Source of the DNA: Nemertoderma westbladi | Lineage: Eukaryota > Animalia > Xenacoelomorpha | DNA length: 64,000 nt | NCBI GenBank assembly: GCA_032718475.1 | Contig: JAUCBJ010009103.1 | Location: 124,001-188,000 of the forward strand | Direction of reading: 5' to 3' | Shown here: positions 868-25,982 of the stretch, one piece after another | Position numbering within the stretch: position 1 is the first letter of the stretch | Layout: each line of letters opens with the position of its first letter | Notes under the pieces: generated by a model | The model's database searches: none | The model's input: the letters and a program-made list of their open reading frames with translations, nothing else | What the model was told of the DNA's origin: nothing | Made by a program: the position numbers and the translations under genes

Positions 868-3728
868 GTCCACCCCTACCCTCGGCTAGCAGATAGGAGT
901 ACCGCCAAGCCCTACCTTCGGGTAGCAGATAGGAGTAGCGCCCACCCCTACCATCGGGTAGCAGATAGGAGTAGCGCCCACCCCTACCCTCGGGTAGCAG
1001 ATAGGAGTAGCGCCCACCCCTACCCTCGGGTAGCAGATAGGAGTAGCGCCCACCCCTACCATCGGGTAGCAGATGGGAGTACCGCCCACCCCTACCTTCG
1101 GGTAGCAGATGGGAGTAGCGCCCACCCCTACCCTCGGGTAGCAGATAGGAGTAGCGCCCACCCCTACCCTCGGGTAGCAGATAGGAGTAGCGCCCACCCC
1201 TACCCTCGGGTAGCAGATAGGAGTAGCGCCCACCCCTACCCTCGGGTAGCAGATAGGAGTAGCGCCCACCCCTACCCTCGGGTAGCAGATAGGAGTAGCG
1301 CCCACCCCTACCCTCGGGTAGCAGATAGGAGTAGCGCCCACCCCTACCCTCGGGTAGCAGATAGGAGTAGCGCCCACCCCTACCCTCGGGTAGCAGATAG
1401 GAGTAGCGCCCACCCCTACCCTCGGGTAGCAGATAGGAGTAGCGCCCACCCCTACCCTCGGGTAGCAGATAGGAGTAGCGCCCACCCCTACCCTCGGGTA
1501 GCAGATAGGAGTAGCGCCCACCCCTACCCTCGGGTAGCAGATAGGAGTAGCGCCCACCCCTACCCTCGGGTAGCAGATAGGAGTAGCGCCCACCCCTACC
1601 CTCGGGTAGCAGATAGGAGTAGCGCCCACCCCTACCCTCGGGTAGCAGATAGGAGTAGCGCCCACCCCTACCCTCGGGTAGCAGATAGGAGTAGCGCCCA
1701 CCCCTACCCTCGGGTAGCAGATAGGAGTAGCGCCCACCCCTACCCTCGGGTAGCAGATAGGAGTAGCGCCCACCCCTACCCTCGGGTAGCAGATAGGAGT
1801 AGCGCCCACCCCTACCCTCGGGTAGCAGATAGGAGTAGCGCCCACCCCTACCCTCGGGTAGCAGATAGGAGTAGCGCCCACCCCTACCCTCGGGTAGCAG
1901 ATAGGAGTAGCGCCACCCCTACCCTCGGGTAGCAGATAGGAGTAGCGCCACCCCTACCCTCGGGTAGCAGATAGGAGTAGCGCCCACCCCTACCCTCGGG
2001 TAGCAGATAGGAGTAGCGCCACCCCTACCCTCGGGTAGCAGATAGGAGTAGCGCCCACCCCTACCATCGGGTAGCAGATAGGAGTAGCGCCCACCCCTAC
2101 CCTCGGGTAGCAGATAGGAGTAGCGCCCACCCCTACCCTCGGGTAGCAGATAGGAGTAGCGCCACCCCTACCCTCGGGTAGCAGATAGGAGTAGCGCCCA
2201 CCCCTACCATCGGGTAGCAGATAGGAGTAGCGCCCACCCCTACCCTCGGGTAGCAGATAGGAGTAGCGCCACCCCTACCCTCGGGTAGCAGATAGGAGTA
2301 GCGCCCACCCCTACCATCGGGTAGCAGATAGGAGTAGCGCCCACCCCTACCCTCGGGTAGCAGATAGGAGTAGCGCCCACCCCTACCCTCGGGTAGCAGA
2401 TAGGAGTAGCGCCCACCCCTACCCTCGGGTAGCAGATAGGAGTAGCGCCCACCCCTACCCTCGGGTAGCAGATAGGAGTAGCGCCCACCCCTACCCTCGG
2501 GTAGCAGATAGGAGTAGCGCCCACCCCTACCCTCGGGTAGCAGATAGGAGTAGCGCCCACCCCTACCCTCGGGTAGCAGATAGGAGTAGCGCCCACCCCT
2601 ACCCTCGGGTAGCAGATAGGAGTAGCGCCCACCCCTACCCTCGGGTAGCAGATAGGAGTAGCGCCCACCCCTACCCTCGGGTAGCAGATAGGAGTAGCGC
2701 CACCCCTACCCTCGGGTAGCAGATAGGAGTAGCGCCCACCCCTACCATCGGGTAGCAGATAGGAGTAGCGCCCACCCCTACCCTCGGGTAGCAGATAGGA
2801 GTAGCGCCCACCCCTACCCTCGGGTAGCAGATAGGAGTAGCGCCACCCCTACCCTCGGGTAGCAGATAGGAGTAGCGCCCACCCCTACCATCGGGTAGCA
2901 GATAGGAGTAGCGCCCACCCCTACCCTCGGGTAGCAGATAGGAGTAGCGCCACCCCTACCCTCGGGTAGCAGATAGGAGTAGCGCCCACCCCTACCATCG
3001 GGTAGCAGATAGGAGTAGCGCCCACCCCTACCCTCGGGTAGCAGATAGGAGTAGCGCCCACCCCTACCCTCGGGTAGCAGATAGGAGTAGCGCCCACCCC
3101 TACCATCGGGTAGCAGATAGGAGTAGCGCCCACCCCTACCCTCGGGTAGCAGATAGGAGTAGCGCCACCCCTACCTTCGGGTAGCAGATAGGAGTACCGC
3201 CCACCCCTACCTTCGGGCAGCAGATAGGAGTAGCGCCCACCCCTACCCTCGGGTAGCAGATAGGAGTAGCGCCCACCCCTACCCTCGGGTAGCAGATAGG
3301 AGTAGCGCCACCCCTACCTTCGGGTAGCAGATAGGAGTACCGCCCACCCCTACCTTCGGGTAGCAGATAGGAGTAGCGCCCACCCCTACCCTCGGGTAGC
3401 AGATAGGAGTAGCGCCCACCCCTACCCTCGGGTAGCAGATAGGAGTAGCGCCAATCCCTACCTTCGGGTAGCAGATAAGAGTAGCGCCCATCCCTACCTT
3501 CGGGTAGCAGATAGGAGTAGCGCCCACTCCTACCTTCGGGTAGCAGATAGGAGTAGCGCCCACTCCTACCCTCGGGTAGCAGATATGAGTAGCGTCCACC
3601 CCTACCGTCGGGTAGCAGATAGGAGTAGCGCCCACCCCTACCCTCGGGTAGCAGATAGGAGTACCGCCCACCCCTACCCTCGGGTAGCAGATAGGAGTAC
3701 CGCCCACCCCTACCCTCGGGTAGCAGAT
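868..3728. repeat. 36-bp minisatellite (CCCACCCCTACCCTCGGGTAGCAGATAGGAGTAGCG)n, about 80 copies
   Basis: Direct reading. Homogeneous core, 35-bp deletion variants from about 1910 onward, more variants at both ends. Confidence 0.97.
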
Positions 3729-4134
3729 ACCGAAAGAGGAGCCTTTTGGTCGCCTTCGACTTCGGCTGACTATTTGCTTTGCTTTGATATGTTACGTAGT
3801 TTACGGCCCCGGTACAACAATAAGTGGCTATGATACTGATATGCAGCAACAACAATAAGAGGAAACAACATAAGAAGAAATATTATAAATTCAATATTTA
3901 CAGATGATCATCTAAACTAAAACTAACCCTTTCCAGAAACGCGGCATAAACCAAACTGCTGACCACAGAGTCGAGATCACACGAACAGTTGCCAATTACT
4001 GCATGCACAACATTGAACAACTCGAATTGGTCCTAAAAAATCAATTCAGTTACAGGTACTAATGACTGAATGATGGCGATGGGGGATATGATGAGTTCTG
4101 CGAGAGGGTGGGTGTATTTATGTACATTTTTACA

Positions 4135-5360
4135 AGTAAGCCACGCATGAATTTGTGCCTAAAAAAATAACTGAATAAAGCTTTAATACGGTATTTAGAG
4201 GGTCCGGTCAATGGGTCCGGTCAGTAGCCACTTCTTATTAGTGGCTACTGACCGGACCCTCTAAATACCGTATTAAAGCTTTATTCAGTAATTATTGACC
4301 GGATCCTTATTACCACAATTACTACTACTGTACTACGATCGGCAAGCTGCATTGCAGCTGCATTACATATTTTTATTTATTTATTTATTTAATCATCTAA
4401 AATGATATATAATTAAAATTTTTGTACACACCTGATAAAAAGTACCGGTATAACATTAAATTAATAAGACATAGATTAAAGTTAGTTCGTAATTATCAGA
4501 CTTGACAGACATGAAGTATAAATTTTCTGTTGACACTGATAAATAATTAAAATGTTACGGTATAGAGCTGTAGGTAGATGGCTCACTTATATTGTGTTGA
4601 AAAATTCGATTATTCGACTATGTCGGGTGTTGAATGGGGATGTACTATAAATATCGTTGTAACAATTATTAATGAAGTCACACTGAGCTGTCTCACCGAC
4701 GGACAGGGAACCCAGGTTCAGTCGAGAGATGAGATCCAATTTGCTGTATTGGTATGTGAGTAAAGAGACTATGCAGGGAACAGGAAATGACTCACGGCAA
4801 TTATAATATGTTGATCCAATCCCGATATAATGATTTTGACTTCTGGAATCTGCTCGTCTTGCGTTCCTGTGAAGTGATATACGCAATAGACTTTGTAAGA
4901 TTGCATTAGGGCACGTAGATATGCGAATTATAGTGCCTATAGAAGCTGCAAATGCATCAGAGGTAATAGGTCGGCATTTCATCAGTTTGTATATTATCGA
5001 GTTACTAGCATACGTTCCCAAATGTAGAAGACCCCTCAGTGCCTTTCGATGGTATGTATCAAGTTTGTTTCTATCCCCGCTCGTCATTCGTCCAACCATA
5101 AACCTTGCACTATAGATAATATATAGTAAGCCACGCATGAATTTGTGCCTAAAAAAATAACTGAATAAAGCTTTAATACGGTATTTAGAGGGTCCGGTCA
5201 ATGGGTCCGGTCAGTAGCCACTTCTTATTAGTGGCTACTGACCGGACCCTCTAAATACCGTATTAAAGCTTTATTCAGTAATTATTGACCGGATCCTTAT
5301 TACCACAATTACTACTACTGTACTACGATCGGCAAGCTGCATTGCAGCTGCATTACATAT
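4135..5360. repeat. Two identical 236-bp direct repeats (4135-4370 and 5125-5360), each containing a long palindrome
   Basis: The blocks match at a 990-bp offset. Each contains GGGTCCGGTCAGTAGCCACT-7 nt-AGTGGCTACTGACCGGACCC plus an outer arm. Confidence 0.9.
4770..5160 (-). pseudogene. Non-LTR retrotransposon ORF2 fragment (post-RT region)
   Basis: ORF 4587-5201 contains KLDTYHRKALRGLLHLGTYASNSIIY, typical of the region C-terminal to LINE RT domains. Confidence 0.55.
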
Positions 5361-5525: not shown

Positions 5526-7405
5526 TTGTAACATGTGTTAACTTTCGTTTATTGTTTTGGTTCCCCCAACACGCCTCTGTAACCTGCTCCTTTAAATGGC
5601 AATGGGTCCGGCCAACGGGTCCGTTCAATTGAGTAATGAGTCCGGTCAGTAGCCTTTGCCACGTTAGAGAAAGAATTTCAGAGAGCTGGGAGCTAGTCGG
5701 CCGCGGCCGCAGTGTGGTACCGGTACCGGAAACCAACAGAGTAGAGAAGCATAGGGCGTAAATATTATTATATCTGTAAATCCCGATCCCGTTATTAAAT
5801 TGAACAGTAAAAGCCTTCCGCAAATGCAGGTAGGCAGGCAGGCGTTAGCCTATTGCCTATGCTTGCTTCCTTAGTTTTGCGTAGGCCCTACCGCAGTACC
5901 ACCAGTACCGAATCGGTTCGTTGTTGAAGTTTGTTCTGTTGTTTGTAGTCAGACAGTTTGCAGTTAGTAGGTCTGTAGGTACCGCGTACCGGTCAGCCGG
6001 TAACAAATATTGACGAAATATTCTGATACCGGAATTCAGGTACCCGGTTGCCGGTACCGGTAATGGCGGTATTTGTAAATTTAAATATCACACATAGGAT
6101 GCTACGGATTAGGTACTTTGTATTTTAATACGAGATTGTCGAATTTTAAGACTTACCTTGATATTTTGTAGATGGTCAATGTATGGTTCCATGCTGTGTT
6201 GTGGTCTCCAGCTAGGTTCAGTATGTTGTATCATGCACCAGTGCACTGAGAAGCGAGACCGAGAACCAGTCTATCTCTACAAATGCAGAAATGTCTGGTA
6301 CAGCTGTAGTTCGAGAGTAGGTACCCTACCGGCAACAAACCATGTAAGCCTAAATGATATGATTATTGGTAATAAGTAGTAAAGATGCAGAGATGTGCAC
6401 TGCACAGTAGCCGGCGGCGGTCCAATGAAATAAAATAAACAAATAAAAAATAATTATTTACTGTCACACAGGATCCCTGCTCCCACAGGTTCTTACTGCA
6501 GCAGATCCTGGCTGGTAGCCATCCTCGTTGGCAACACTGCATCCATCATGGCTACAGCTGGCCCATCCCCCGGCGGAATCTTTGACTGAGAGATTTTTAA
6601 CTCTACCATTTGTAAGTCCTTCTTCATCCCTTTTGCTTTTATGTTGGTTGACCTACACAGAATATGGATTTACTTTACCGTATAACAGTATAAGGATTTA
6701 TGTTAATTAAAGTTTTTAGATTATTTTGTACTCAGTATTTCGGTTCAACTGTATAAATAGTTATTCGATTATGAACATACATAAAAATCTAATTTTAAAA
6801 TGGGCTCAAATTTATTAGTACATTTGAGATGAGATTTAAAAATAATCAGTTGTTAATTATTACTGCACTTAATGAATATCATATTCCTATTACACGAAAA
6901 AATAAGGTATTCTTGACAGTGTTCAGTTCGTAGTTTTTGGCTATGTACTCTATAGTTCTACAAGAGGTATCACGCTCGAAATATAAACTCACAAACATGA
7001 GGCACAATTCAGCCACCGTAATTATAAATTATTCAATTTTTTTAATTGGCACAATTCAGCCACCGCAACATCTGTAACTGCCGTTAATAGAGATACTGTA
7101 GTTTCACTGAACTCCCCCTGGGTGGGTGAGTCAGAATTGTTATTTTTGTTATTTTTTAATTTTTTAGCTACCAGCGTTTAACAAAAAGTGTCTCCATCGA
7201 TATTGCACCAGTCGTACAGCAGTTATTCCTAAACCTTATAGCGATTCGTTGGTACTGATGGAAAGCTGGTCGTGCAAGGATTCCAAATACTGTATGTTAC
7301 ACAATCTGAATTTTGTCGTAAAATAGCTGTGTTATGAGCGTTTGAATGTTGCATGGTTTTGCAATTGCGCGAGGCTATTTTATTCAATTAAATAAATACA
7401 ACATA

Positions 7406-9950
7406 CATGACCTACTATAGATTACGACCCGCCACCCGCCAAGCTGCTGCAAAGCCCCAAAATTTAGTGGGCCAGTTACTGTATTTCTTTTACATAGTAC
7501 CCCTGAAATAATAGGTCTAGCGCGTCGAAAGCACTTCTCCCTAACTAAAATTATGTCCTCTTTCAGATGAGACAAATAAAAATTTAATAGCTCCAGTAGT
7601 TTTCGAGATATGAGGAGTTCCCATACCATATCAGCACTTTTCGGAATTGATAAAATTACTCAAAATACAAGCTTCAATACTTTGTTATAACCATGAAACC
7701 ATATTGCTTTTTTGGTTAGTAAAATTTATTATTGGTAATCGAAAGCGAAATTAGAATAAAATCTTCATTGTTTATTTTATAATAGACACTAAAAGAGCAC
7801 TAAAATTACAAGTAGCTCGAAATTTTCAAATAGCCAAAATTGGTAATTTGACCGTATAGTTTGGCTACTGAGGTTTTATAATGTGCTGATTTCATTGGCA
7901 AGGTTTATAAAATTGTGGTACATTATTTTCAAAAATGGCCAATGTTTCAGTCGAAAATTCGAAGTGCCAACCTGTGCAAGTGCACTTCTATTTCAGTACT
8001 GCAGTACTCTGGTACTGGTGCGGTAATGTAGTGAATTATTCAGATGTGTTATTTGCATTGCACTGCACTACTGCGTTAGGCATTACATCACTGCTGATAG
8101 TGCTGCGCATTATGCTGTTACTGTGTTAGGCATCAATGCCGTATCATTATTACATTACCTGATTACCTGTATTTATTTGTCAATATTTATTATCACCTCT
8201 CTCTACACGGGCTGGCAGCCACGGGCGCGGGGGCCTAACTAATCTAATCCGGACATAGTGTAGTATCTGAATCTGTATGGAGGCCGTAGCAGTTATAGAA
8301 ATTGGAAAGTGCTGTGTGTATAGTTGACGCTCGCTCGCTCTGTCTACAGAGTGGCACTTAGTTCGACTAGTCAGGGCTTTTTTATAGATCAGATGACACC
8401 AGGGCCTTCCACTAACATTTGTACATTTCGACGGGCGATATATTGTGTAAACCCGGAGTGCTTCATTGTGCTATAAATGCCTCAAATTCCTCGGAGACCG
8501 CCAGTAACAGAGTAAACAGAATACTGTATACCGTCCATCGTCTATCGAAATTCATGAAGGAGAGTAAAATTAGTTCTTTATCTGATCTATAGAGATGAAG
8601 AGTCGGCACTGATCACGATAAAACATGTCAAACATTCTGGCAAATTTAAATTTTCTGGCAATGCATCAATCATATTTGGTGCTATTTTCTGATTTTGGCT
8701 CCCCAGGACGAAAAGTACAAGTCAAACTAAACATTTTGTGTTTGGTTTGATAATTCTAAACGTATACGGGTTTTTGAGGTAGCTGATCGCGATGAAAGTA
8801 GTTATAAATATTTATGGTATGTGCAAACCCAATTTTGGTGCCATTTTGGTGCTCCAAAATGAAAAGTACAAGTAGCAAAAATTTGAAACTGTTACATTTT
8901 GCCTTTGGTTTGGTAATTCTGAAAAGGTACTGGTTTTCAAGGTCGCTAATCACGATACAACTCGTTAAAAATAATTCGTGGTAACGCTACTATCGTTTTT
9001 CGTGTTTGTGTGGTGGGACGAAAAATGGAAGTAGCACAAAATTTCAAAGGGAAAAAATCAAATTTGGTTGGATGGATAATACTATATTTATGAGTGTCAT
9101 ATTCGTGATCAGCATCCCAAAAATCCCCTAATGTTATAAAATCAGGTTGATTCGGTAATGATTTTTCATTATGAAATTTGTGCTACTTGTATTTTTCGTG
9201 CCGCACATTGACACGTTTCCAAAAAAGCCGTAATCAACAAGGTGCGATATTTTCAATTTCTTATTCGTGATCAGCATCCCAAATAAACCACATGGTCATA
9301 AAATCAATTTGTTTTCGTGGTGAGTTTTCATTATCATATTTCCACTACTTGTTTTCTTCGCGCTCCAGGGGCACAAATAACTGACTAATAACTAATATAA
9401 CAACATGCCTATGTTGTTATATTACACAACTCTTCGATCTGTTTGATGTAGGTAGAGGAATACACCTTCCCAATGAAATCAGCATATTCTAAAACCTCAG
9501 TAGCAAAACTGTATGGCCAATTTACCACGTTTGAAAAAAGTGCTACTTGCACATTTGGTGCTCTTTTAGTATCTATTGATAAAAAAAATGTAAATTTTGC
9601 TTCTAATCTTATTTTCGATTACTAATAATGAATTCAACAAACCAAAAAGGCATAATATGGTTTCATGGTTATACCAAAGTCTTTGAAGGGTGATGTATTT
9701 TATGTAATTTTAATAATTCCAGAAGGTTCCGAAATGGTATGGGTGCCAGGAATGCCTCATATCTCGAAAACTACTGGAGCTATTAACTTTTTATTTGTCT
9801 CATCTGAAAGAGGATATAATTTTAGTTAGGTACAAGTACTTTCGACGCGCTAGAATATTGTTTCAGGGGTTCTATCTAAGATAAATAACTGGCCCACTAA
9901 ATTTAGGGGCTTTGCAGCGGCTTGGCGGGTCGTATCTATAGTAGGTCATG
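7406..9950. mobile_element. Non-autonomous foldback-type DNA transposon with long imperfect TIRs (P/Galileo-like)
   Basis: CATGACCTACTATAGA... at 7406 is inverted at ...TCTATAGTAGGTCATG ending 9950. Inverted similarity runs several hundred bp (about 7406-7900 vs 9470-9950). Flanks CAACATA/CACCATA resemble a 7-bp TSD with one mismatch. Confidence 0.75.
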
Positions 9951-10450: not shown

Positions 10451-10454
10451 AAGG

Positions 10455-11006
10455 TTGCTATTACAGTTGCTATTACAGTTGCTATTACAGTTGCTATTAC
10501 AGTTGCTATTACAGTTGCTATTACAGTTGCTATTACAGTTGCTATTACAGTTGCTATTACAGTTGCTATTACAGTTGCTATTACAGTTGCTATTACAGTT
10601 TCTATTACAGTTAATATTACAGTTGCTATTACAGTTGCTATTACAGTTGATATTACAGTTGCTATTACAGTTGCTATTACAGTTGCTATTACAGTTGCTA
10701 TTACAGTTGCTATTACAGTTGCTATTACAGTTGCTATTACAGTTGCTATTACAGTTGCTATTACAGTTGCTATTACAGTTGCTATTACAGTTGCTATTAC
10801 AGTTGCTATTACAGTTTCTATTACAGTTGATATTACAGTTGCTATTACAGTTGCTATTACAGTTGCTATTACAGTTGCTATTACAGTTGCTATTACAGTT
10901 GCTATTACAGTTGCTATTACAGTTGCTATTACAGTTGCTATTACAGTTGCTATTACAGTTGCTATTACAGTTGCTATTACAGTTGCTATTACAGTTGCTA
11001 TTACAG
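10455..11006. repeat. 12-bp tandem repeat (TTGCTATTACAG)n, about 46 copies
   Basis: Direct reading. Confidence 0.97.
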
Positions 11007-11021
11007 TCGACTCACGATTCC

Positions 11022-12777
11022 TGTTGGCGAGAGTACACGCCATTGTAATATTCTTATCGAAAGATATTAGATTAGCTTAGTTATCTTTAGGTACGCACCA
11101 AGAAAATTTTTGATATTTTATAATATATTATGGTCAGTCATATTGTCTTAAGAAATCTAAAATCTACTGTATAATATACCTAAAATGTGTGCAACGATAC
11201 CTACAAATAACATTAGGTAAGTATTATTTAAACAACCCACCAAAAATATATTTAAAAGGTGCCATTTGCAACATTTCTATTGGACGCCAGTCTTGCATTA
11301 GGCCAGGCGGGCATATGATTCATTATGTGCATAAGTCACAATACTTGTACTCTTTAACTCTAAAATTCTGAATTCTGTACCGCAGTACCGTGCTGCTGTA
11401 CTTGTGTACTGCTGTACTGGAATATGTACCGGTCCGGTGCTGCCTGACTGATTATACAATTTAAATTTAATTAATTTTACATATTAATATTCTGCAATGT
11501 GCTGATCAACAATACAGACTTTTAAAACCTAGTCCGCGGTCAGTGCTGTGCAGAGCCTACCGTCACACCGTGCTGTCGTAGGTACCTTGCAACCTTGAAG
11601 GCGGTGAATCCCTGTGATATGGAGTAGGGATCATCTAGGCCCGACGCAGGCCTATGGAACGTGAAAGGGGGAAAGTCTGAGATGCGTTAGCTAACAAAAA
11701 AAATCAGGGAAGTTGAACTATTGTACCAGGCCAGCCACTGCAGTAAGCGTTGTATTTGTTTTAAAATAGGGGAGATTAACCGCATTACAGTAATTTAGTT
11801 GCTTGGCGTTTAATTTGGGGCCCAAAAAAGGGGCACAGTTGACTTTGTTACCCTTTGCATTTACTACCAGGTGTCAAGTTATGAGGTCAATTGTGACTGA
11901 TAACAGGGCAGCAGGGGTAAGTGGTGAAGTGTAGGCGCCTAGCTAAAAATTGTGCGGTGTGATTAGGCTAAGCCAAATAAGGGAGGTTCGGGAGGTGCGT
12001 CCTGATTGTTACTACAGGATTAGCGCCCTAGTTTGTGAGCTTCTTTGTGAGGGTTCATTGGGTTTTATTTTGCTTTATTCATTCATGCCCTGATGGTTTG
12101 TTGTGGGATTAGCTTGGCGTTGAGAAATAAATATATATACCAAGTTTCGGCTTACTATCGTTACCTACGGTCTTGGGAGGTGAACGAAAATAAGTTTTTA
12201 TCATCACGGAACCGTATTTTATTTTCTCATCTCATTTTAACCCATTTCACAATTCCTACAGGTACATTTGTATAGCGAAGCCAAGGTTTACCCTTTTTCC
12301 CTTACCTGCTGCTTGATGAACAACGATACTTGCGTCAAACAAAAGCCAAAGGGTGATAAACATTATTTTGATCTATCTATGCCAAAACCCCCTTACTAGA
12401 AACATACATTTTTACATTGCAAAACTATAAAACGGTTTCATTCTAGAATATTTTCGGATAAAATTATGTAATATTGTTTTGGACCTCGCCACTATTTGAA
12501 TTACACTGCAGATCGGATCGAGTCGGGATTCCAACTGGATTACTGGGTTGTTGTAAAATAAATTATTTAAGCGAGTGGGTATCTCGCATTATTGCCAGAA
12601 AGTTGTAGAAAATTATCAAATTAAAATATTTAGATTTCCCTTTGTAGCGGGTGTTTTCTGCAATCATTACCGGTATGGATTTTAGCAGGGTTATATGTGC
12701 TATTTGAGCACAAATAACTGTAGCTGCATTTGGATGGATTTTCAACAGTATTGGATTAGCTGCTGTTGGATTTATCA
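11022..12777 (+). repeat. 5' LTR (1756 bp)
   Basis: Starts TGTTGGCGAGAG and ends GGATTTATCA. Near-identical to 19583-21327. Confidence 0.97.
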
Positions 12778-12791
12778 GTAGTAAATGCAAA
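12778..12791 (+). promoter_or_regulatory. Primer-binding-site position, GTAGTAAATGCAAA, complementary to LTR 11854-11867
   Basis: Lies immediately after the 5' LTR, lacks the TGG start of tRNA PBSs, and is the exact reverse complement of TTTGCATTTACTAC in both LTRs. Confidence 0.65.
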
Positions 12792-13708
12792 ATTATTTAA
12801 TAATTTATTTTCAGAAAATTTTGAAATAAAAGTTTTAGAAAGTTAAAAAATTGGATAAAGTTTGACTGATAAAATTCTAGAACAAAGTGATCTTTGGAAT
12901 CGTGAGTTCGATTTTCTGTTTTGTATTCAGGTTGTGGCGAATTTGAATTTAATTTTGCCTTTAAATTTTGGACAAAATTTGTAATTTACAGTAGGGTAAA
13001 TCTGCCAGGCCACCGCTGATTTCTCTATACAACTTACAGGTACGGGTAAAGTCACTGCAAATGAGTTCGGGAGCCCGGAGACGCAAAATCCGTCGGTGCA
13101 TTCGTGGTCCGCGCAACCCACGATTACTTTGGCATTCGAAGAAACGCGACTTCAGGGGTCCGAGGTTGGTCGTAGTGTCAGTAGCTGTGTTTGTGAGATC
13201 TATAGATCAATTTTGTGGTAGTCTGCTGGTTTGTATATACATATATACTAGGTATATAGTGGCGTACCGGTATATATCAGACTTTGATGTTATTATACTT
13301 TCCCGATTTTTTTTGAACACAAATGTGTCAACAATTTGTGTTTGTAAGCACGCGTTTTTGTAAACCATCGATTTCCCCAGAAAAGTTCCATTGATGCCTA
13401 GCGGGGCCTTTTAAATTTAAAATAAAATATATTATATATATATTTTAAAAACTTTACAGCATAAAACCTATTATGATAGTCAATATATCGCGGTAAATTT
13501 GAAATTCGAAAGTTGGTAAATTTCGAATATTTTTTGAGTTATAAATATATAGAATATATATAACCCGCGATATTGTTATAATATTTCCCATCGCGGTAAT
13601 AAATAGCTTACCTATTTTATAAGCTGACCTATTTTATTATATACCGCACATCATTTAGTCAATTTGACTACTGTTTAAATAAATTAAGTAATCAAACCTA
13701 TCCTGACA

Positions 13709-16700
13709 ATGAGTCAGACATCCCAGACAGACGTTCCGGTAACGGATGATTTCGAGACAGCTGATGGACTCAGTCAGCAACTTGACGTGTCAGTTACACC
13801 AGACACTGAGACTATTAGTGAGCCTGCCACACAACCAGCAGGTGTCGTTGCCACTGAAGGATTAATAGCAGAGGGTGGTGCTCACACACTAATCGACACA
13901 CAGCACCCTGACTCTGAAATTCCTGACGCCGACAGTAGCGACTATTCAGACACTTCCTTAAGGCGTCCAGCTATTACTAAGAGTGCCGGTGGTTACATGG
14001 GTAAGGTAACCAAAGTGACGAACTGGCTGACAACTTTACTAGACCAATCAGCTTACGATCCAGCTGACCTAGGGGAAATAATTGACAAATATAACATGAC
14101 ATTGAGACAGCAGGTCATTAACCTGCAGGAACTGGTCACAGTCGCTGAAAGGCGGAGACAAGGTAAGTTACTAACATCCCTATATGACAAGTTACAAGTG
14201 ATTAGGGACAACTTTTTGCGATTAAATAAGCGTGTAAACGCTCTTAGACAGGAATACCGAGGTAGTTTGACAGAAGGTGTAGACACCGACACCTTTGACT
14301 CTGAGGAGTTTGAGTTAGTAAAATGGTGTCAGAATTTCCAGAAGGAGTTAGAACAATACTTTAGGAAAAAGGGAGTTGTAGTTGCTGGGCTGCCTTTACC
14401 CACTAGAGAGAATATTGCAGATGCAGATAGCAACCCTTCACAGGTAGGTCGGAGTAGATATCGGCAAACGAGCTCGGTAAGTTCGCAGTCTGTTACAGCA
14501 TCGCAGCTGGTGACGCTGAAGCGGCTGAGCGAAGATGGCCGCCGAGCGAAGCAAATCCAAATCCAGTTTCAACAGGAAGAGGAGATTAGAAAGAGCACTG
14601 AGTTAGCTGAAGTAGAGCTAAAGCGACTAACTACAGATATTTCTCGCCTCAGTATCACCGAGGAGGTGCCAGATGTATCAGCATTAGAGGAGGCTAATAA
14701 AGGAGAGCGGGAAGCATATGCACGTATTCTAACGATCGAACGCGAGGAAGCTGAGCGTGAAGCACAGCGCGAGACTGCACGCTTGGAAGCTGAACAGGTA
14801 ACAGCTGAACGACTCCAGCTTTTAGCGGAAACGGAGCGGATTAAGAAGGATAAACTGGCAGCCATTGAACGTAAACAACTTGAAAGTGAGTCAAGCCTTC
14901 GCATGCAGCGTATAGCAGAGGAGAATCAGCGCATCACAAGGGAGCGCGAACTTGCACGAAAGAAGGCTGAACTGCGTGAGAAACAGGAGGAACTTATGCT
15001 CCAACAGCAACAGCGATTTAGGGATGATGAGCGTCGACGGAAAGCAGAAGAGCTAGAGGATAACCGCCGGAGTATAGCGCTCCAACTTGAGGAAGCACAA
15101 ACTACTTGGCGCTGCAATCGAATGGAGTCGCTACTAAGTGGGGTTGACCATGTAGCTTCATCAGTAGAACGCTTCAACCGAACTCATGACAAGCATGGAA
15201 TGGAGTCCAAGGTTCACTTCATAGATTCCTTCCATCGACAATTTGCTGGTAAAGGTTGGGTACCGCCAGAGGATGACTCCCCACCTAGCGTGATCGTGGA
15301 GCGGCGTCCTCGAGGTGAGTCAGATCGGCGGCGAAATGCTCCACCTTTTGCGAGTTCAGGTATGTACAACCTAACAGAAAATGTTCTGAATTCACCAAAT
15401 GACAAATGGCAAACAGATTTAGGTGTTCCGAATGATCACCGACATATCGACCACCTGTCTCCGTACCACGCACAGGGATGCAAATGTTTGACCTGCCAGC
15501 CTATATCACCAATTGGAGCGGAGCCGTCTAATCCATTATCCAACGTTGAGTCCAAAGAAAAATTCAGGACTAAGGAAGTTGAGCAACCTCGCAGATGGAA
15601 TGAATCTCCAGGTGAAGGGAAATATATTCCAAATGAAACGAATAACCAGCCTCAGATCTCATTAGAACAATTGAAGGATGCTATCCAAGAGAGCAACCGT
15701 GGGGTGATCAACGAGGTCAGGCATGTTCAGGACCAGATCTTGGATGTACAACAGCAGGTGGATGGGGTCCAGGAACGTGTCGTGGGGGTTCATGAGCGAG
15801 TCGACGGAGTGCAGGAGCGAGTTCAACGCGTTCAAGGTCAAGTTAGCCAGGAATTCGAGCAGGTGAGATGGTCAGTGAAGGAGGTTCATGAGCAGATGGA
15901 GAGGGCCAAGCTAGAGATGGAAAAGAACAAGTTATCTGGCGTGAAACTGACTGTTCACCCCGAGACTAAACTGAAACCTCCAGTTGTAGATTGCAGGACC
16001 GATTCCGAAGAAGAATTGGATTGTCAACCAACGATTAACCATAAGGGTGTTTATGTGGGGGAGAGTCCGCGCATTCGAACAAGGGTAATCACTCCCAGCA
16101 AAACGCCAACTATCACACCCAAGTCCAAGACTGCTCACACTTTTGTAGCGCCTAGGGTGGATGTGGAAAATCCAGCACCAGTAAATGCGATTGCGACTGA
16201 GTTGTCAAAATTTACAGCAAGGCAAAGTTTACCAACTACACAACCACCATGTTTCACTGGGATATCCAAACATTGGAGAAATTTTATTAGCTACATTGAT
16301 GCTAGTGTGGCGTCACAAGATTTTACATCCCAGGAAAAGTTCTCATATTTATATCAACTATTACGGGGAGAACCAAAGGAACTGGTTAGTACTTTCATGG
16401 GAGATGATAATGCATTTCAGATGGCTTATGACAGGTTAGTAACCACCTATGGTGGAGATGTCAAAATGGCCAGGTCAGTGGTAGATGAATTGACAAAGGG
16501 GGGCTTATGTACTACACCCATAGAGTTAGTAAAACTAGCTGATGCTATTAAATCGGCTATGAATATCTTACCGGTTTACGGTTGTGAACATTATGGCGCT
16601 AGACCCGACATTCTAGCAGCCTTAATGGGACGACTAGATGTGCGACATAGGCGTAAGGTAAGAGGGATAGAACGGCGTGTAGAAGCCAGGGGCGAACCCC

Positions 16701-18064
16701 TGTCCATCAAACATATCTATGACGTCATCTCAGCAGAAGGTGAAGCTGACTTGCGATCTAATTATTCTGAGGAATATTTGGGTTATAACAAAAAACAATC
16801 CCTTAAATATCGAACAATGGTTAGTGCAGGGGATTATAATACAACCTATAATACTTTATCTGAAAAGAAGGTAGTTAGTACAGGAGGTAGTTTTGGAAAT
16901 AGCGCCAAAACTAGTAAAGTAGCATCACCCATTGGTCCGAAGGCAATTAAGATACAACAGTTGCCTGAGGATTTTAAAGGGTGCCAATATTGTCACCAAT
17001 TAACTCAAAGGTCTAATGACCATAGACTGGCGAGTTGTAACCTATTTTCTAAGCTAGACGTGGACAAGCGCCGTCTAGTTATTAGATCTTTAGACGCTTG
17101 TTGGAAATGCTTGGCAGTAGGCCATAAGCGCCGAGCCTGCACTGCCACTAATGTAAGTAATGGGTGTGCTGATTGCGGCAGGTTACACCATAGGTTGCTG
17201 CACACGCCTCAACACACTCCAACTAAGAAATACTTGAAGGACCACCCGACCAAGGTAGTTCGACCAAATGAAACCAGGAAGCTCCAGGTAACTTTCGCCC
17301 AGACTAGCCATACCGATGATAATTATCAGTCTGGATCAAGTGAAGAGGATTATAGTGGTGAGACCTCAGAGTCGGAATACGGTAGGACCGATTGCGATTC
17401 AGAACCCAGCACTACCCTGCTTACACGGACACAGTCAGCATCATTTAGCGTAATACCTATTAAGATCCAAGGTAAGTACGGCTCGAAACGCATTTATTGT
17501 TTATTAGACCATGCTTCAAATCAAAGCTATGTAGACGAGGAAATAGCTAGCGTGGTTGTGGATGTAGATCGACTAGAGTCCTCCACAATGAATGTAGGAT
17601 CGTTACATGGTCGCAGAGATGTCACTGTTAAATATGTCATGTTAACCATTGACTCTTTACTACCAAAGGAGGGGTTGTCAGACATAGAACAAAATTTGCT
17701 GCCGATTCACTGCTTAAAGTTCGCAGCCATACGCGATTTTACTCAGTTGCTAGGACCCGTATCAATGCCAAATAAAACGCAGAAGGAATATTTTAGGAAA
17801 CATCACATACCGGAACATCGTGTAGACTATCGCAATATAGCGATGATTATCGGCACTGATCAATTCAATGCACACAGAGTGTTGGAATATCGACCAAAGT
17901 TATGGACGCCGAATGAACCATACTCATGCAGAACACTATTGGGTTGGTACACACGGTTCCCATTAGATTGGCGTGGTAATGTTTCCGAATATTTACTGGA
18001 CGATTATCATTATCGACATAGACAAGCTGACACTTTGACAACTAACTTAGGTGAAGGAAGATAA
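13709..18064 (+). CDS. BEL/Pao Gag-aspartic protease polyprotein (1451 aa)
   Basis: Uninterrupted ORF with an E/R-rich coiled coil and a DUF1759-like capsid region (PPCFTG..WRNF...EKFSYLYQLLRGEPKELV). Zinc knuckles CQYC..H..C, CWKC..GH..C and CADC..HH.LLH. Protease motif LLDHASNQSYV, then IIGTD and RTLLGW, then a stop. Confidence 0.92.
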   Translation: MSQTSQTDVPVTDDFETADGLSQQLDVSVTPDTETISEPATQPAGVVATEGLIAEGGAHTLIDTQHPDSEIPDADSSDYSDTSLRRPAITKSAGGYMGKVTKVTNWLTTLLDQSAYDPADLGEIIDKYNMTLRQQVINLQELVTVAERRRQGKLLTSLYDKLQVIRDNFLRLNKRVNALRQEYRGSLTEGVDTDTFDSEEFELVKWCQNFQKELEQYFRKKGVVVAGLPLPTRENIADADSNPSQVGRSRYRQTSSVSSQSVTASQLVTLKRLSEDGRRAKQIQIQFQQEEEIRKSTELAEVELKRLTTDISRLSITEEVPDVSALEEANKGEREAYARILTIEREEAEREAQRETARLEAEQVTAERLQLLAETERIKKDKLAAIERKQLESESSLRMQRIAEENQRITRERELARKKAELREKQEELMLQQQQRFRDDERRRKAEELEDNRRSIALQLEEAQTTWRCNRMESLLSGVDHVASSVERFNRTHDKHGMESKVHFIDSFHRQFAGKGWVPPEDDSPPSVIVERRPRGESDRRRNAPPFASSGMYNLTENVLNSPNDKWQTDLGVPNDHRHIDHLSPYHAQGCKCLTCQPISPIGAEPSNPLSNVESKEKFRTKEVEQPRRWNESPGEGKYIPNETNNQPQISLEQLKDAIQESNRGVINEVRHVQDQILDVQQQVDGVQERVVGVHERVDGVQERVQRVQGQVSQEFEQVRWSVKEVHEQMERAKLEMEKNKLSGVKLTVHPETKLKPPVVDCRTDSEEELDCQPTINHKGVYVGESPRIRTRVITPSKTPTITPKSKTAHTFVAPRVDVENPAPVNAIATELSKFTARQSLPTTQPPCFTGISKHWRNFISYIDASVASQDFTSQEKFSYLYQLLRGEPKELVSTFMGDDNAFQMAYDRLVTTYGGDVKMARSVVDELTKGGLCTTPIELVKLADAIKSAMNILPVYGCEHYGARPDILAALMGRLDVRHRRKVRGIERRVEARGEPLSIKHIYDVISAEGEADLRSNYSEEYLGYNKKQSLKYRTMVSAGDYNTTYNTLSEKKVVSTGGSFGNSAKTSKVASPIGPKAIKIQQLPEDFKGCQYCHQLTQRSNDHRLASCNLFSKLDVDKRRLVIRSLDACWKCLAVGHKRRACTATNVSNGCADCGRLHHRLLHTPQHTPTKKYLKDHPTKVVRPNETRKLQVTFAQTSHTDDNYQSGSSEEDYSGETSESEYGRTDCDSEPSTTLLTRTQSASFSVIPIKIQGKYGSKRIYCLLDHASNQSYVDEEIASVVVDVDRLESSTMNVGSLHGRRDVTVKYVMLTIDSLLPKEGLSDIEQNLLPIHCLKFAAIRDFTQLLGPVSMPNKTQKEYFRKHHIPEHRVDYRNIAMIIGTDQFNAHRVLEYRPKLWTPNEPYSCRTLLGWYTRFPLDWRGNVSEYLLDDYHYRHRQADTLTTNLGEGR

Positions 18065-19212
18065 AAAGAAGATCATAACAGACCTAAATAAAGATTTATA
18101 AAAATAAAGTATATGTTTTATGTCATCATAGATAATTCCAGTAATGTATGTTTTTTAACATACATTGGGGCGGTATGCTCTACGAGTTCTGGAATTATAC
18201 TTACAGATTTGGCGAAAATAATTATTTTAAATTATTTATCGAGAAAATATATTTTTTAATTTTTAATTTTATTGAAAATTTTTTAATTTCCAAAAGGAAA
18301 TAAGTGAAAAGGAGTAAATTACATAAATACGAGATAAAATGTAACAGCGATAACATCAAAGTCACGTATTGCAAAACTCAGAATTGCCATTGGGTTCCAC
18401 AGACATAGTTTACTCGATAGTGCGATCAGTTTTGGATGTTTGTTGTCGCGTCACGTGTGCATTGACAGCGTCCGGTTTTCCGAAATCGTTTGTGTCATAT
18501 TTCATTATTGATCACACACCCGCTTCACCTTCATTCATTTTAGGCGTTATATATATTTGGGAGGGTACTTCCGTTCTACTAGATAGGTCCAATTTAATTT
18601 AATTTGAGTTAAATCCTTTAATAAACGCGCGAGAATGTGAAGCGAGGAGGGCGACCGACGCGTCGCGACAACCTCTGGGGCCAGGTTTTGGGCGAGGCGC
18701 ATTTTGCACCTTCAATCCCGCAAGGAAAGGGAATGGGCCGTGGTAAACTATCGACTGTTATCTGAATCCCAACGAATCCTGGTTTTGCCCAAAACCTGAA
18801 GGCGGTTCTAGATTCGCTCTAGAATGCGCAGTGGTGGCACAGCTTTATTCGTTTCTATTTAATTTATGTTTGATTAAACCGAATTGAGAAGAATTATATT
18901 TGTAAGCTCTGAAGAATATGTAAATTGATCTAAATTAATTTTTATGTCAGAAAAGTGTTTGGATTATATTTTGATTTATTACATACGTAGATTTGATTAA
19001 AGAATAGTAAATATTCAAATGTTGAAAGAAAGTTTAATTTGTATGTAATTTTGAACTCATTTATAGTGATGCTGTAGATTACAGTACGGGAAGTTCTCTA
19101 GGAACTGAAGATGTTGACATGTTGCATAGCAACCCCGATTATTTTACACTTCTCTGTGACAATTATAATTGGTGAACACCATATCATATTATATTATCAA
19201 GTTTTGTCTAAC

Positions 19213-19295
19213 AGGCTGTTAGCTCACTCGGTAGTGCGTCGATGCACAAATCTATAGGTTAGGGGTTCGATCCTTATGAAGGAATTGGAATTTTT
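19213..19295 (+). other. tRNA-derived sequence (SINE head or tRNA pseudogene) inside the LTR element
   Basis: A-box-like TAGCTCACTCGG (19220), B-box GGTTCGATCC (19264) and a T5 run at 19291. Acceptor and anticodon stems are degenerate. Confidence 0.6.
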
Positions 19296-19575
19296 GTATA
19301 TTATTTCAAACAAACTAATATTTGGTTTAAAATTAAATTACCTTTATGAATGAAATATTTATTTATATTCGTAATATTATTCGTAGTATTGTGCGAAAGA
19401 ATATTTTGTATTGTTTAGTAATAATTTGGAACTCGATCTAATTACAAATAATATTACTTAAATACTCATCTTATCTGTGCAATATAATGTTTTAGATCTA
19501 TTAGTTATTACTGTAGTTTGTATACCGTGTACTTGGAAGCATCGTAGCTATATAGATAGCCGCTATCGATGCTTC

Positions 19576-19582
19576 GGGGCGG
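19576..19582 (+). promoter_or_regulatory. Polypurine tract (GGGGCGG)
   Basis: Directly abuts the TG of the 3' LTR and follows a 9-bp hairpin stem (GAAGCATCG/CGATGCTTC, 19536-19575). Confidence 0.7.
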
Positions 19583-21327
19583 TGTTGGCGAGAGTACACG
19601 CCATTGTAATATTCTTATCGAAAGATATTAGATTAGCTTAGTTATCTTTAGGTACGCACCAAGAAAATTTTTGATATTTTATAATATATTATGGTCAGTC
19701 ATATTGTCGTAAGAAATCTAAAATCTACTGTATAAATTACCTAATATGTGTGCAACGATACCTACAAATAACATTAGGTAAGTATTATTTAAACAACCCA
19801 CCAAAAAATATATTTAAAAAGGTGCCATTTGCTACATTTCTATTGGACGCCAGTCTTGCATTAGGCCAGGCGGGCATATGATTCATTCTATGTTTATAAG
19901 TCACAATACTTGTACTCTTTAACTCTAAAATTCTGAATTCTGTACCGTGCTGCTGTACTTGTGTACTGCTGTACTGGAATATGTACCGGTCCGGTGCTGC
20001 CTGACTGATTATACAATTTAAATTTAATTAATTTTACATATTAATATTCTGCAATGTGCTGATCAACAATACAGACTTTTAAAACCTAGTCCGCGGTCAG
20101 TGCTGTGCAGAGCCTACCGTCAGACCGTGCTGTCGTACCTTGCAACCTTGAAGGCGGTGAATCCCTGTGATATGGAGTAGGGATCATCTAGGCCCGACGC
20201 AGGCCTATGGAATGTGAAAGGGGGAAAGTCTGAGATGCGTTAGCTAACAAAAATCAGGGAAGTTGAACTATTGTACCAGGCCAGCCACTGCAGTAAGCGT
20301 TGTATTTGTTTTAAAATAGGGGAGATTAACCGCATTACAGTAATTTAGTTGCTTGGCGTTTATTTTGGGGCCCAAAAAAGGGGCACAGTTGACTTTGTTA
20401 CCCTTTGCATTTACTACCAGGTGTCAAGTTATGAGGTCAATTGTGACTGATAACAGGGCAGCAGGGGTAAGTGGTGAAGTGTAGGCGCCTAGCTAAAAAT
20501 TGTGCGGTGTGATTAGGCTAAGCCAAATAAGGGAGGTTCGGGAGGTGCGTCCTGATTGTTACTACAGGATTAGCGCCCTAGTTTGTGAGCTTCTTTGTGA
20601 GGGTTCATTGGGTTTTATTTTGCTTTATTCATTCATGCCCTGATGGTTTGTTGTGGGATTAGCTTGGCGTTGAGAAATAAATATATATACCAAGTTTCGG
20701 CTTACTATCGTTACCTACGGTCTTGGGAGGTGAACGAAAATAAGTTTTTATCATCACGGAACCGTATTTTATTTTCTCATCTCATTTTAACCCATTTCAC
20801 AATTCCTACAGGTACATTTGTATAGCGAAGCCAAGGTTTACCCTTTTTCCCTTACCTGCTGCTTGATGAACAACGATACTTGCGTCAAACAAAAGCCAAA
20901 GGGTGATAAACATTATTTTGATCTATCTATGCCAAAACCCCCTTACTAGAAACATACATTTTTACATTGCAAAACTATAAAACGGTTTCATTCTAGAATA
21001 TTTTCGGATAAAATTATGTAATATTGTTTTGGACCTCGCCACTATTTGAATTACACTGCAGATCGGATCGAGTCGGGATTCCAACTGGATTACTGGGTTG
21101 TTGTAAAATAAATTATTTAAGCGAGTGGGTATCTCGCATTATTGCCAGAAAGTTGTAGAAAATTATCAAATTAAAATATTTAGATTTCCCTTTGTAGCGG
21201 GTGTTTTCTGCAATCATTACCGGTATGGATTTTAGCAGGGTTATATGTGCTATTTGAGCACAAATAACTGTAGCTGCATTTGGATGGATTTTCAACAGTA
21301 TTGGATTAGCTGCTGTTGGATTTATCA
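19583..21327 (+). repeat. 3' LTR (1745 bp)
   Basis: Same termini as the 5' LTR and followed by the TSD ATTCC. Confidence 0.97.
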
Positions 21328-22099
21328 ATTCCTACAGACTCAAAAATCACTTTAATACAGTATCATGGTGCCATTATCTGGAACACATTAGATGTCAACA
21401 CAAAAAAACATTAAGACAAAAATTTACTAGGAAGAAATATAAAGAAAAATCTAATTTTATGAACTTGATTAGTACAATAATTGAATAAATATATATACAA
21501 ATTGAATGGGCAAATAAATAATTGAATAACTACAAAATGTATTTTTTTTTTTTAAAGTTAAATATTATTTAATTCAAATAACGCTAAACACAAAATAATC
21601 GACGGCAATCCACGTTGTTTTGTCCCCCCCCCCCCCCCCCCCCCTCTCTGCCTTCCCCTCCCCTCCAATTTATCCAGTCCCTCTCCCCTCAATTGCCCAA
21701 TGTCAGGTGCTGACAGACTAGTACCCGCTAGGCCTATTGTCAACTCCTGTCAGTGCACTTAAAAATTATAGAAAAAAAGAGAACTCAAAAAATTTACTAA
21801 AATTATCTAAAATGCTTTGTTAAAATTAATAATCATTACATTTTATAATCATAATTGTATATGTGCTTGGCCAAATTGAAGGAAAATAAATAATAATATA
21901 TTAATCATTTATTCCACATTTCGCCGAAATAATAACAAATGACGTCACTTTCTACAGTAAAATGTCTAAACTTTGTATATGAAAATAAGTTTAACGATTC
22001 CCGGTTTTTTTTATCTACTACTTCTACTACTACAATCGGTATGCTGCATTATATTGTTATAAATAATAATCTCAAATTATTTTTAATTAATCTCAAAAG

Positions 22100-23059: not shown

Positions 23060-23580
23060 CGCCAGTTATGGATGGGGCTGCGGCTTTAATGTGTTCGACA
23101 AAATTGCGCCGCCACAACTCCCTATCACCCATATCATTTGCTAGATCATCCGCATCTTCAAGGCCAGTGTCTTTTAAGATGCGTCCCAAGAAAGCCATGG
23201 GCTGTCCACCATGCTTATTCATTCCATGAGACTGCCAAAGTACACGATTATGCACTGGCTGGTCCTCACGGCGAAAGCAATGTCCTGCAAAGCGGAGGCG
23301 GTTCTGTTCAAGTCTCAAAGCTAGGGGAGATTAATGGAACACCTCCAATGTTGTATAGAGTCTGATTGGATATGTGATCATTGTACTTGACACAATGAAT
23401 CCGGCGCAGGATTCTGTGAAAGTGCCATGCAGAGATTTGGTATCCTCTGCAGTTAGAGCCCAGCATGGACTCCCATATAAGAGTACTTACTACTGGTACT
23501 ACTACTGCCATAAATAATCGAACCTTTAAGGTTCCGTTTTATTCTATGGGACTTCCAAACCCTGTACAGACTTAGACTAT
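23060..23580 (-). mobile_element. RTE-like LINE 3' fragment
   Basis: RLRFAGHCFRREDQPVHN...DRELWRRNFV, with frameshifts. Confidence 0.8.
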
Positions 23581-24337
23581 TTAACGCTTTTTTTACTTAG
23601 TATTTAATTAAAGAACGAGATCCGCGCTTTAATGATTTTACAACTATTGAGATATCACGTAGAGGGAGACATACTGTAATAGCGCATGGAGAATACGTGG
23701 CCGGAAGCAAGATAGTATCAGACTACATTGTGAACCTATGACAGTAATCTTTCTACATGAGATCTGGAGATCTGTCATCATATGGCATATATGATATATA
23801 CTGTACAAGCAGATTCCATGTGTTATTATAAGTCCAAGACCAGACCTGTTTTTAACGATTTAGGTATACTGGTCTTGGAATCGTTAATCACAGGTCTACT
23901 CTTCAACGATGCCATTCACAGATTAAAGCGGGAAATTTGAATTCACCAAAGAGCAAACCTTTTCAGAAAATGACACCATATTACTGTTATGGGTCATACT
24001 GTATATCTTGAGATACATTAGTAAAGCTTAATTTTATATGAATTATTCATTGAAAATAAAAATATTTTTAACAATTTTATTATTTCAGATTGAGATTGGC
24101 GCTCTTGCCTGGAATGCCTGGAGACTGCAGCTAATTGACTGCATACAATCAGACAGTCGAAATCAGTCTGTCAGTACGGGCATTACAGCATTAGGCCTAC
24201 CTGTATACAGGTATATATATATATACCAAGGCCTTGATATATACAGATATATATATATATATATAAGGGTATACGGCAAACGCCCATGTCATGCTGCCAG
24301 GCGGCTGAAACTTTAGGCCACTTTGTACAATCAGACA

Positions 24338-25217
24338 ATGCCGGGTAAACTGAAAGTATACATAGCGTCGGCTCGCCACCTACCGGTAATGGACCGCGCG
24401 AGCGAGCTAACTGACGCCTTCGTCGAGGTCAAATTCAACGGAATCACCTACAAAACCGACGTCTGCAAGAAATCCTTGAACCCTGATTGGTTCACCTGGT
24501 TTAAGTTCGAGGTTGAGGACGAGGATTTACAGAATGAACCGCTACAAGTCCGCGTTATGGATCACGATACCTACAGCGCGCACGACGCAATCGGCAAACT
24601 ATACCTCGATCTAAACCCTCTACTAGTGGAGAACTCATCCGCGAACATTCTAAACGGATGGCTTCCGATCTACGACACGATGCACGGAGTCCGTGGAGAG
24701 ATTAAACTCTCCGTCGTACTCGAGTTGTTTAGCGATGCGAACCGGTTCCGGGCGTCTTCATGCGGGGTTCGTTTCTACGGCAGCGCTGCGGTACCGGCGA
24801 CCCACGGCCTCGTCGAGTTGTGCGGATTCGTTGAGGAGTTGGCGGTTTTCGACGACCCGGAGTACCAGTGGATCGACCGGGTGCGAACCCAGCGATCCAG
24901 TAACGAGGCCAGACAGCAGCTCTTCTCCAAGTTGTCTGGAGAGTTGCAGCGCACAATAGGTTTGCGAGCTATTCAACTCGGCGCGAATTCCGTTATCGGT
25001 TATCAACAGAACTTCGATCTGGAAGGGGAAACCGGTCTGGTTGTTAGAGCCATTGGGACGGCCGCGAATCTATTCAAACTTCCCGCGCATAGAGATACCG
25101 CGGACACTCTCAACATTAGTAACAATGCGGATTGCGTTTTAGAACCCTCGGAACTGCAACAAGGGCAATCGCTAGAAGATAAATCCAGGACGCATTCAGT
25201 TTGCGTTTCTTCCGTAG
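24338..25217 (+). CDS. C2CD5: C2 domain-containing protein 5 (KIAA0528/CDP138), coding exon 1
   Basis: MPGKLKV..ARHLPVMDRASELTDAFVEVKF N-terminal C2 domain and the YbjQ-like DDPEYQWID motif. Donor AG|GTAAGC at 25217/25218, phase 1. Confidence 0.9.
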
Positions 25218-25982
25218 GTAAGCTTACAGGCTTAGCTGTCAGGCTGTGGTGGTTCAATAGTAATTATGTCAGTATGTTTTCCAAAGTTAAAAGTTTTAGT
25301 AGCCCATGTCATTGGATGTCAAGTCCCCGAACCACTATAAGCCAGCGACGAATTCATTTATAAATATCATCTGTTCATGGACATGCACATTTTGTAATTA
25401 TTTGTTGTGTTATGAGTTACTGAGTTATGACTATCGTCTTTTTGATTAGCCATTTTTTAACTTTTCGGGGTGCCTTTCGGAGAAACAACCGCAAAGACAA
25501 GCCTACGAACTAGCAATTATAAAGATAGGGGGGACTTTCCATCAAAATGCATCTCTCTCCAGGGGAAAATCGACGCAAATATCAGCTGATTACACTCCTG
25601 CACTCAAAAGTAAAAGTGTAACCTGTTCTAATGACCTTAATTTATTGTTTTGGTTAGAATAACGTGTCTCTGTAACCTTCTCCTTTCCCTCAATTGAGAA
25701 TTTACCATTGAGGCGATATATTAACTCGCCGAGGTGGGATTTGCGTCAAGTCTCCCTCCTGTCTCGTCTCCAGTTATTACTGGTTTGGCTCCTGGGTTTC
25801 CTACAAACTGCTGTTAACCCTATTCTTAATAATTTATAACAACATAATATAATCAAATAAATAATATTAGATACTTTTTTTAACGTGGAGATATAGGTGG
25901 TTTTCCACTCACTTTACTGTGTGATTGAATTATTGATGTTGTTTCTCCGTTATAAATTATATAATTAATATTATGTTTTTAG

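Follow-up and report, generated by a model that had tools for sequence, protein, structure and literature searches.

A non-autonomous BEL/Pao retrotransposon with a primer binding site complementary to its own LTR: a candidate for self-primed reverse transcription

The analysed window, a DNA stretch of 64,000 nucleotides, harbors a recently inserted, non-autonomous BEL/Pao retrotransposon at positions 11022–21327, which lies between two ATTCC copies forming a 5-bp target site duplication (TSD). The alignment of its two LTRs (1760 columns, 19 of them with gaps) shows 10 substitutions, corresponding to 99.4% identity, and it thus appears that this copy transposed recently with its present primer binding site (PBS). 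The following features were assigned to the element:

11017–11021, + strand: 5′ TSD ATTCC (repeat pair flanking the element)
11022–12777, + strand: 5′ LTR, 1756 nt, TG...CA (LTR pair alignment)
11217–11222, + strand: GTAAGT, putative strong 5′ splice-site-like motif (6-of-6 donor, LTR position 196)
11854–11867, + strand: candidate self-primer, complement of the PBS, 3′ end AC (sequence match, fold prediction, comparison with relatives)
11868–11870, + strand: CAG directly 3′ of the candidate primer, putative 3′ splice-site-like motif (CAG/G)
11917–12261, + strand: putative intron downstream of the primer, GTAAGT ... pyrimidine tract-CAG (motifs)
12426–12432, + strand: TATAAAA, rival promoter motif 3′ of the candidate primer
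12557–12562, + strand: AATAAA, likely poly(A) signal (motif; an alternative at 12126 is altered in most contigs)
12733–12776, + strand: predicted U5 hairpin adjoining the PBS (fold prediction)
12778–12791, + strand: PBS without TGG (sequence; family contigs)
13709–18064, + strand: single ORF, first ATG to stop, ending before any RT (ORF and domain searches)
19576–19582, + strand: polypurine tract (PPT) GGGGCGG (sequence; relatives have similar tracts)
19583–21327, + strand: 3′ LTR, 1745 nt (LTR pair alignment)
20404–20417, + strand: 3′ LTR copy of the candidate primer (sequence match)
21328–21332, + strand: 3′ TSD ATTCC (repeat pair flanking the element)

The ORF comprises 1458 codons, encoding a long N-terminal region, a BEL-type Gag (DUF1759), Cys/His knuckles and an aspartic protease. 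DUF1759 (PF03564) was found with an E-value of 1.3e-8, and atlas matches to DUF1759 stood at 0.96. The protease is the only pol domain present. As RT, RNase H and integrase are absent from the element, it needs these activities in trans. A profile of 24 BEL/Pao polyproteins, compared with all six frames of the window, matched over positions 43–612 (Gag-protease) and nowhere else. A word-indexed protein search with residues 830–1458 returned no relatives, but a full HMMER scan did detect them, yielding 2071 at E 0.001 or better (23–36% identical among those listed). The Pao Peptidase_A17 domain was present in nine of the ten long homologues scanned. None of 80 pattern matches in viral contigs was confirmed. 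The BEL-type Gag with its Cys/His knuckles, the TG...CA LTRs, the TSD and the PPT all agree with a BEL/Pao element, whereas the PR-RT-RH-IN pol and the 18-nt PBS for the 3′ end of a host tRNA are missing. Judged by its sequence, the element is classed as a non-autonomous BEL/Pao derivative. As its Gag is BEL-type and not that of a Ty3/gypsy chromovirus, it is no member of the Tf1/sushi group and would resemble Tf1 in its working mode at most. In a Gag-protease tree it sat on a long branch without placement, and it carries no RT for an RT phylogeny. The approximately 850 residues ahead of the Gag core (13709–16250) form a charged coiled-coil-like region with short heptad-like repeats and no Pfam match. 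A second copy of the PPT sequence is located at 18167–18176, about 100 nt past the ORF stop, and the 3′ non-coding region includes a tRNA-like stretch with box A- and box B-like motifs (19214–19290), possibly a SINE remnant, for which neither ARAGORN nor Rfam made a call.

The PBS (12778–12791) reads GTAGTAAATGCAAA and is the exact reverse complement of 11854–11867 and of the 3′ LTR copy at 20404–20417. The match begins immediately past the CA that closes the LTR (12777), hence at offset zero, and has no Watson-Crick extension on either side. An earlier note on this DNA had described such a 14-nt complement, anchored at the LTR end and lacking TGG, as well as a continuation of the LTR copy as CCA, and both were borne out by the sequence. 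Its chance estimate of about 1e-5 was, however, approximately tenfold too optimistic, as the Markov expectation for a 14/14 match amounts to 4e-5 to 1.4e-4 (about 1e-4), which still places the match beyond chance. Among dinucleotide shuffles, 14 nt were reached in 0 of 3000 at offset 0 and in 1 of 3000 with offsets 0–5, and resampling the LTR from a Markov model gave an equal match in 0 of 200 and, in a later resampling, 1 of 300 cases. Only one of 6722 internal positions of the element reaches 14 nt, namely the PBS itself.

Other origins of the primer were considered as well. A decayed TGG-containing site which had lost its TG in the window copy was ruled out, since the main contigs of the family have no insertion there. 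A spliced primer was also ruled out for the window element: the best junction match was 4 nt at plausible sites, and relaxed sites gave 8 nt at best, which is below most shuffles. Cer7, a BEL-type element of Caenorhabditis elegans, is said to encode its own tRNA-like primer. The window LTR differs in having neither a tRNA gene (none with ARAGORN defaults, noise only under relaxed settings) nor an Rfam family (nothing below E 1), and no cloverleaf appeared in predicted folds around 11790–11870.

Fold predictions gave the 14-bp helix between candidate primer and PBS a mean probability of 0.96–0.99 for RNA starts at 11850–11858, and of 0.03–0.78 for six earlier starts between 11700 and 11845. A further predicted hairpin (11835–11897), whose arms flank the candidate primer, competes with this helix if the RNA starts upstream. 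No TATA box was found about 30 nt 5′ of the segment. A weak pyrimidine-initiator-like motif, one of four such motifs in the LTR, overlaps the segment start, and the TATAAAA at 12426 could place the RNA start 3′ of the segment. Self-priming of Tf1 requires a U5 stem-loop beside the PBS. A stem just 5′ of the PBS, which the earlier note had already seen, was recovered by prediction at 12733–12776 (core 12743–12750 with 12761–12768); the stability of this hairpin is unremarkable, with z about −1.6 and an equally good fold in 12 and 14 of 200 shuffles.

Variation within the family was followed in four DNA-type public sequencing runs (X1–X4) from three studies, of which X1 and X2 represent one sample and the run holding the element best may be the source of the window itself. 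The PBS is unchanged in the main contigs of all four, as seen directly in X2 and X4 and deduced from counts of differences in X1 and X3. The lack of TGG is therefore a trait of the family and not of one decayed copy. Two variants affect the LTR segment. The only X4 contig covering it has a C>T change at 11867, the 3′ base of the candidate primer, and the PBS contigs of this run keep the G at 12778, resulting in a wobble pair. A 7%-diverged LTR, which may belong to a decayed copy, carries the change A>T at 11859 as well as 8 inserted nt following 11866, and for the partner sequence no change is listed. As two of the 36 listed LTR substitution sites (978 nt of LTR) fall into the segment versus 0.5 expected, the segment shows no extra conservation. 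In addition, an LTR form skipping 11766–12060 (295 nt, segment included) occurs in X1, X2 and X3. Another LTR variant in X1–X3 has two stretches replaced within 11048–11253, one of which covers the donor-like site at 11217. Co-variation of primer and PBS, the check proposed earlier, was thus not seen within the family, where no compensatory change occurs, but it holds across distant families, which match with different letters.

These distant relatives were retrieved with an alignment of six BEL/Pao polyproteins, and 78 metagenome loci were drawn from the best 80 of 547 confirmed matches. Of these 78, 24 were left out owing to short flanks, truncation or being sister copies. In Gag-protease, the relatives are 21–24% identical to the window element. 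For nine loci (eight families) the LTR end was fixed by two LTR copies. All eight families match their own LTR over 10–15 nt, with differing letters, seven at a predicted splice junction and one contiguously; since the search patterns derived from only a part of the superfamily, this gives no superfamily-wide rate. In seven of the anchored loci (six families) the contiguous match between PBS and LTR is weak (5–9 nt), whereas the PBS matches the exon-exon junction of a GT-AG LTR intron over 10–15 nt (0 of 200 shuffles each). Locus L066 has an 11-nt match across a predicted junction (0 of 20 shuffles). The contiguous 11-nt match belongs to L061 and was equaled by 3 and 6 of 1000 shuffles. Its LTR copies (566–911 and 7075–7401), which may stem from different insertions, are 74% identical with an invariant stretch around the PBS complement. 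This complement lies about 20 nt 3′ of an acceptor-like site. One family (L071) has a TGG two bases past the LTR besides its own-LTR match and may still be using a tRNA.

Of the 15 loci for which the LTR start but not its end was known, 12 had a junction match of 10–13 nt (at most 2 of 40 shuffles). Four of those loci belong to anchored families as sister copies, and here the blind scan recovered the same LTR ends. Under looser bounds, 12 of 35 loci (three repeated; many without a whole LTR) had a match equaled by no more than 2 of 20 shuffles, several of these matches possibly arising by chance, and 23 gave no signal. In a cross-test of the window element and 16 families, nine of them picked by the match-maximizing scan itself and eight anchored, the PBS matched its own LTR over at least 10 nt in 17 of 17 cases, compared with five of 272 pairings with a foreign LTR, two of which share a PBS core. 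Each of the 17 matches has its start within 0–5 nt of the LTR end. The matching stretch has a 3′ AC in 12 of the 16 relatives versus a background of 4.4%, and likewise in the window element. It is contiguous in the window element and in two of the 16 relatives. The distance from this stretch to the LTR end is 910 nt in the window element versus 74–243 nt in the relatives. A poly(A) signal is found 11–119 nt past the predicted primer end in 11 of the 16.

Considering both sides, it is fairly probable, as far as can be read from sequence, that the window element primes minus-strand synthesis with its own 14-nt LTR stretch. Transcription would start at or upstream of 11854, so that the segment could pair with the PBS as the predicted 14-bp helix. 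A cut after C11867, probably made by RNase H from an autonomous partner, would then leave a 3′ C from which the RT supplied by this partner would extend into U5. Splicing of an LTR intron would put the matching stretch together in most relatives, and the window element would represent a contiguous form for which no splicing is needed. The anchored exact match, the absence of TGG, the family-wide PBS, the predicted helix, and the own-LTR matches and AC end of the relatives count for self-priming. Against it count the within-family variants, the LTR form without the segment, the 910-nt distance and the TATAAAA at 12426. The lower helix probability for earlier starts, the distant identity of the relatives, the missing tree placement and the 23 of 35 loci without signal also weigh against it. 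The tRNA-independent priming by own RNA that the earlier note had claimed has gained strong comparative support from distant families. The narrower Tf1-like picture, in which the RNA 5′ end would lie at 11854, meets no upstream TATA box, a canonical TATAAAA on its 3′ side and no compensatory change within the family. Slightly better than even appears the wider proposition that a large part of BEL/Pao has dropped tRNA priming in favor of a 10–15-nt LTR RNA ending in AC, which is mostly built by splicing, with splicing gating reverse transcription. The window element would then be a contiguous offshoot, possibly with the 3′ tail of an excised intron as primer.

It is unlikely, although it fits a number of observations, that the primer is encoded by the element without being cleaved from the template's own 5′ end. 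It could be the 3′ tail of an excised intron (11217–11870) trimmed by three bases, a short transcript confined to the LTR, or the segment in the 3′ LTR of another RNA packaged alongside. The first of these forms follows from the position of the segment, which splicing of 11217–11870 would turn into an intron tail. The 14-mer is indeed pyrimidine-rich and followed by CAG/G, and the 6-of-6 donor at 11217 (LTR position 196) lies within the range of donors in the spliced relatives (LTR positions 126–347). However, none of the 16 relatives has a YAG right after the matching stretch, where the window element has its CAG, and a YAG at that place has a chance of a few percent. The three unpaired bases would moreover require trimming, and the splice sites are putative. 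In the two family variants the altered site still holds a pyrimidine, which would agree with another element-encoded primer, and a primer acting in trans would tolerate the LTR form lacking the segment.

Quite unlikely is a pairing that is selected for a purpose other than priming, for example by closing the RNA between its 5′ and 3′ parts or between LTR and leader during folding, packaging or strand transfer, with an unknown host RNA or tRNA fragment serving as primer. From DNA alone, priming and such other uses look the same, and the 3′ LTR copy at 20404–20417 is part of the genomic RNA wherever transcription starts. Priming by half-tRNAs is described as common in some LTR groups (PMC6317226, PMC10886601). 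Yet the match lies 0–5 nt from the LTR end in 17 of 17 cases, which is where the 3′ end of a primer must sit, and the 3′ AC is shared. A single host primer would also not account for PBS letters that differ between families, and by general tRNA rules the 14-mer corresponds neither to a canonical cytosolic 3′ end nor to a usual anticodon-loop cut. Coincidence, or a relic without present function in a family that is primed otherwise, the 14-mer being just part of the polypyrimidine tract, is very unlikely: the segment lacks extra conservation, its distance from the LTR end is atypical and a genome scan covers so many elements that events of 1e-4 do happen, but no alternative spliced match exists in the window LTR, AC end and zero offset agree with the pattern of the relatives, and the near-identical LTRs speak for recent transposition with this PBS.

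Self-priming itself is documented for a gypsy group; the earlier note had given it as established for fission-yeast Tf1/Tf2 and as proposed for related Ty3/gypsy chromoviruses. No tRNA PBS exists in Tf1 and Tf2 of Schizosaccharomyces pombe, in Tj1 or in the Tf1/sushi group of Ty3/gypsy, whose PBS is instead the complement of a short segment of the LTR (PMC7175516, PMC4600332). For Tf1, pairing involves the initial 11 bases, and the RNase H cleavage falls between bases 11 and 12 (PMC7175516). The window element shares the missing tRNA PBS and the complementarity to its own LTR at the LTR end. Unlike these elements, it is BEL/Pao and not Ty3/gypsy, non-autonomous, has a 14-nt match and a distance of 910 nt from primer to PBS. 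The position of the stretch at the RNA 5′ end is shown for Tf1-type elements, but putative here, and most BEL/Pao relatives would need splicing to make the primer. For Tcn1 (gypsy) and TAR/Houba/Osr-1 (copia), self-priming was predicted from DNA by a complement of at least 10 nt starting 0–5 nt past the LTR (PMC6317226), a pattern which is also found in the window element. These, however, are plant and fungal elements of other superfamilies, and the part available of that article mentions neither a BEL/Pao case nor a spliced primer.

BEL/Pao elements are usually described as tRNA-primed, which agrees with the ICTV profile of the Belpaoviridae (Semotivirus), listing an 18-nt PBS for host tRNA-Arg or -Gly, LTRs of 0.2–1.2 kb and a full pol (PMC8742986). 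Achilles, for instance, has a PBS for tRNA-Tyr (PMC4580426). The window element shares with this family its BEL-type Gag, protease, LTRs, PPT and animal-type host, but differs by the missing tRNA PBS, an LTR of 1.75 kb and the absence of RT, RNase H and integrase. The same profile calls replication of the Belpaoviridae poorly understood (PMC8742986). No self-priming BEL/Pao case was found in the freely available main texts searched, a limited part of the literature. The parts available of PMC6317226, PMC3601003, PMC10886601, PMC4600332, PMC3286476, PMC7175516, PMC6934838, PMC4580426 and PMC13524379 place self-priming in Tf1/sushi, Tcn1 and the copia TAR group, not in BEL/Pao, and PBS or tRNA terms are absent from two BEL/Pao papers (PMC3118150, PMC554778). 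Self-priming would thus apparently occur here outside the groups in which it has been described.

If true, self-priming would be a repeated solution in three LTR superfamilies, joining BEL/Pao to the documented gypsy and the predicted copia group. Self-primed BEL/Pao elements would no longer be controlled through 3′ tRNA fragments, and there would be an explanation for PBSs noted as "missing" in the annotation of animal genomes. The splice-built primer of the relatives would furthermore make the onset of reverse transcription dependent on host splicing.

Beyond the element, the window contains a C2CD5-like host gene at 24317–27883, which spans two long open frames and has C2 and YbjQ-like domains. 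Five tandem arrays (870–3729, 10454–11007, 28429–32093, 40526–43927 and 52767–64000) have units of 36, 12, 23, 17 and 21/42 nt, respectively, and the element begins ten bases past the array with the 12-nt unit. Several inverted-repeat families resembling MITEs or DNA transposons are located at 4163–4296, 5153–5286, 7434–9930, and 23095–23487 with 36200–37396.
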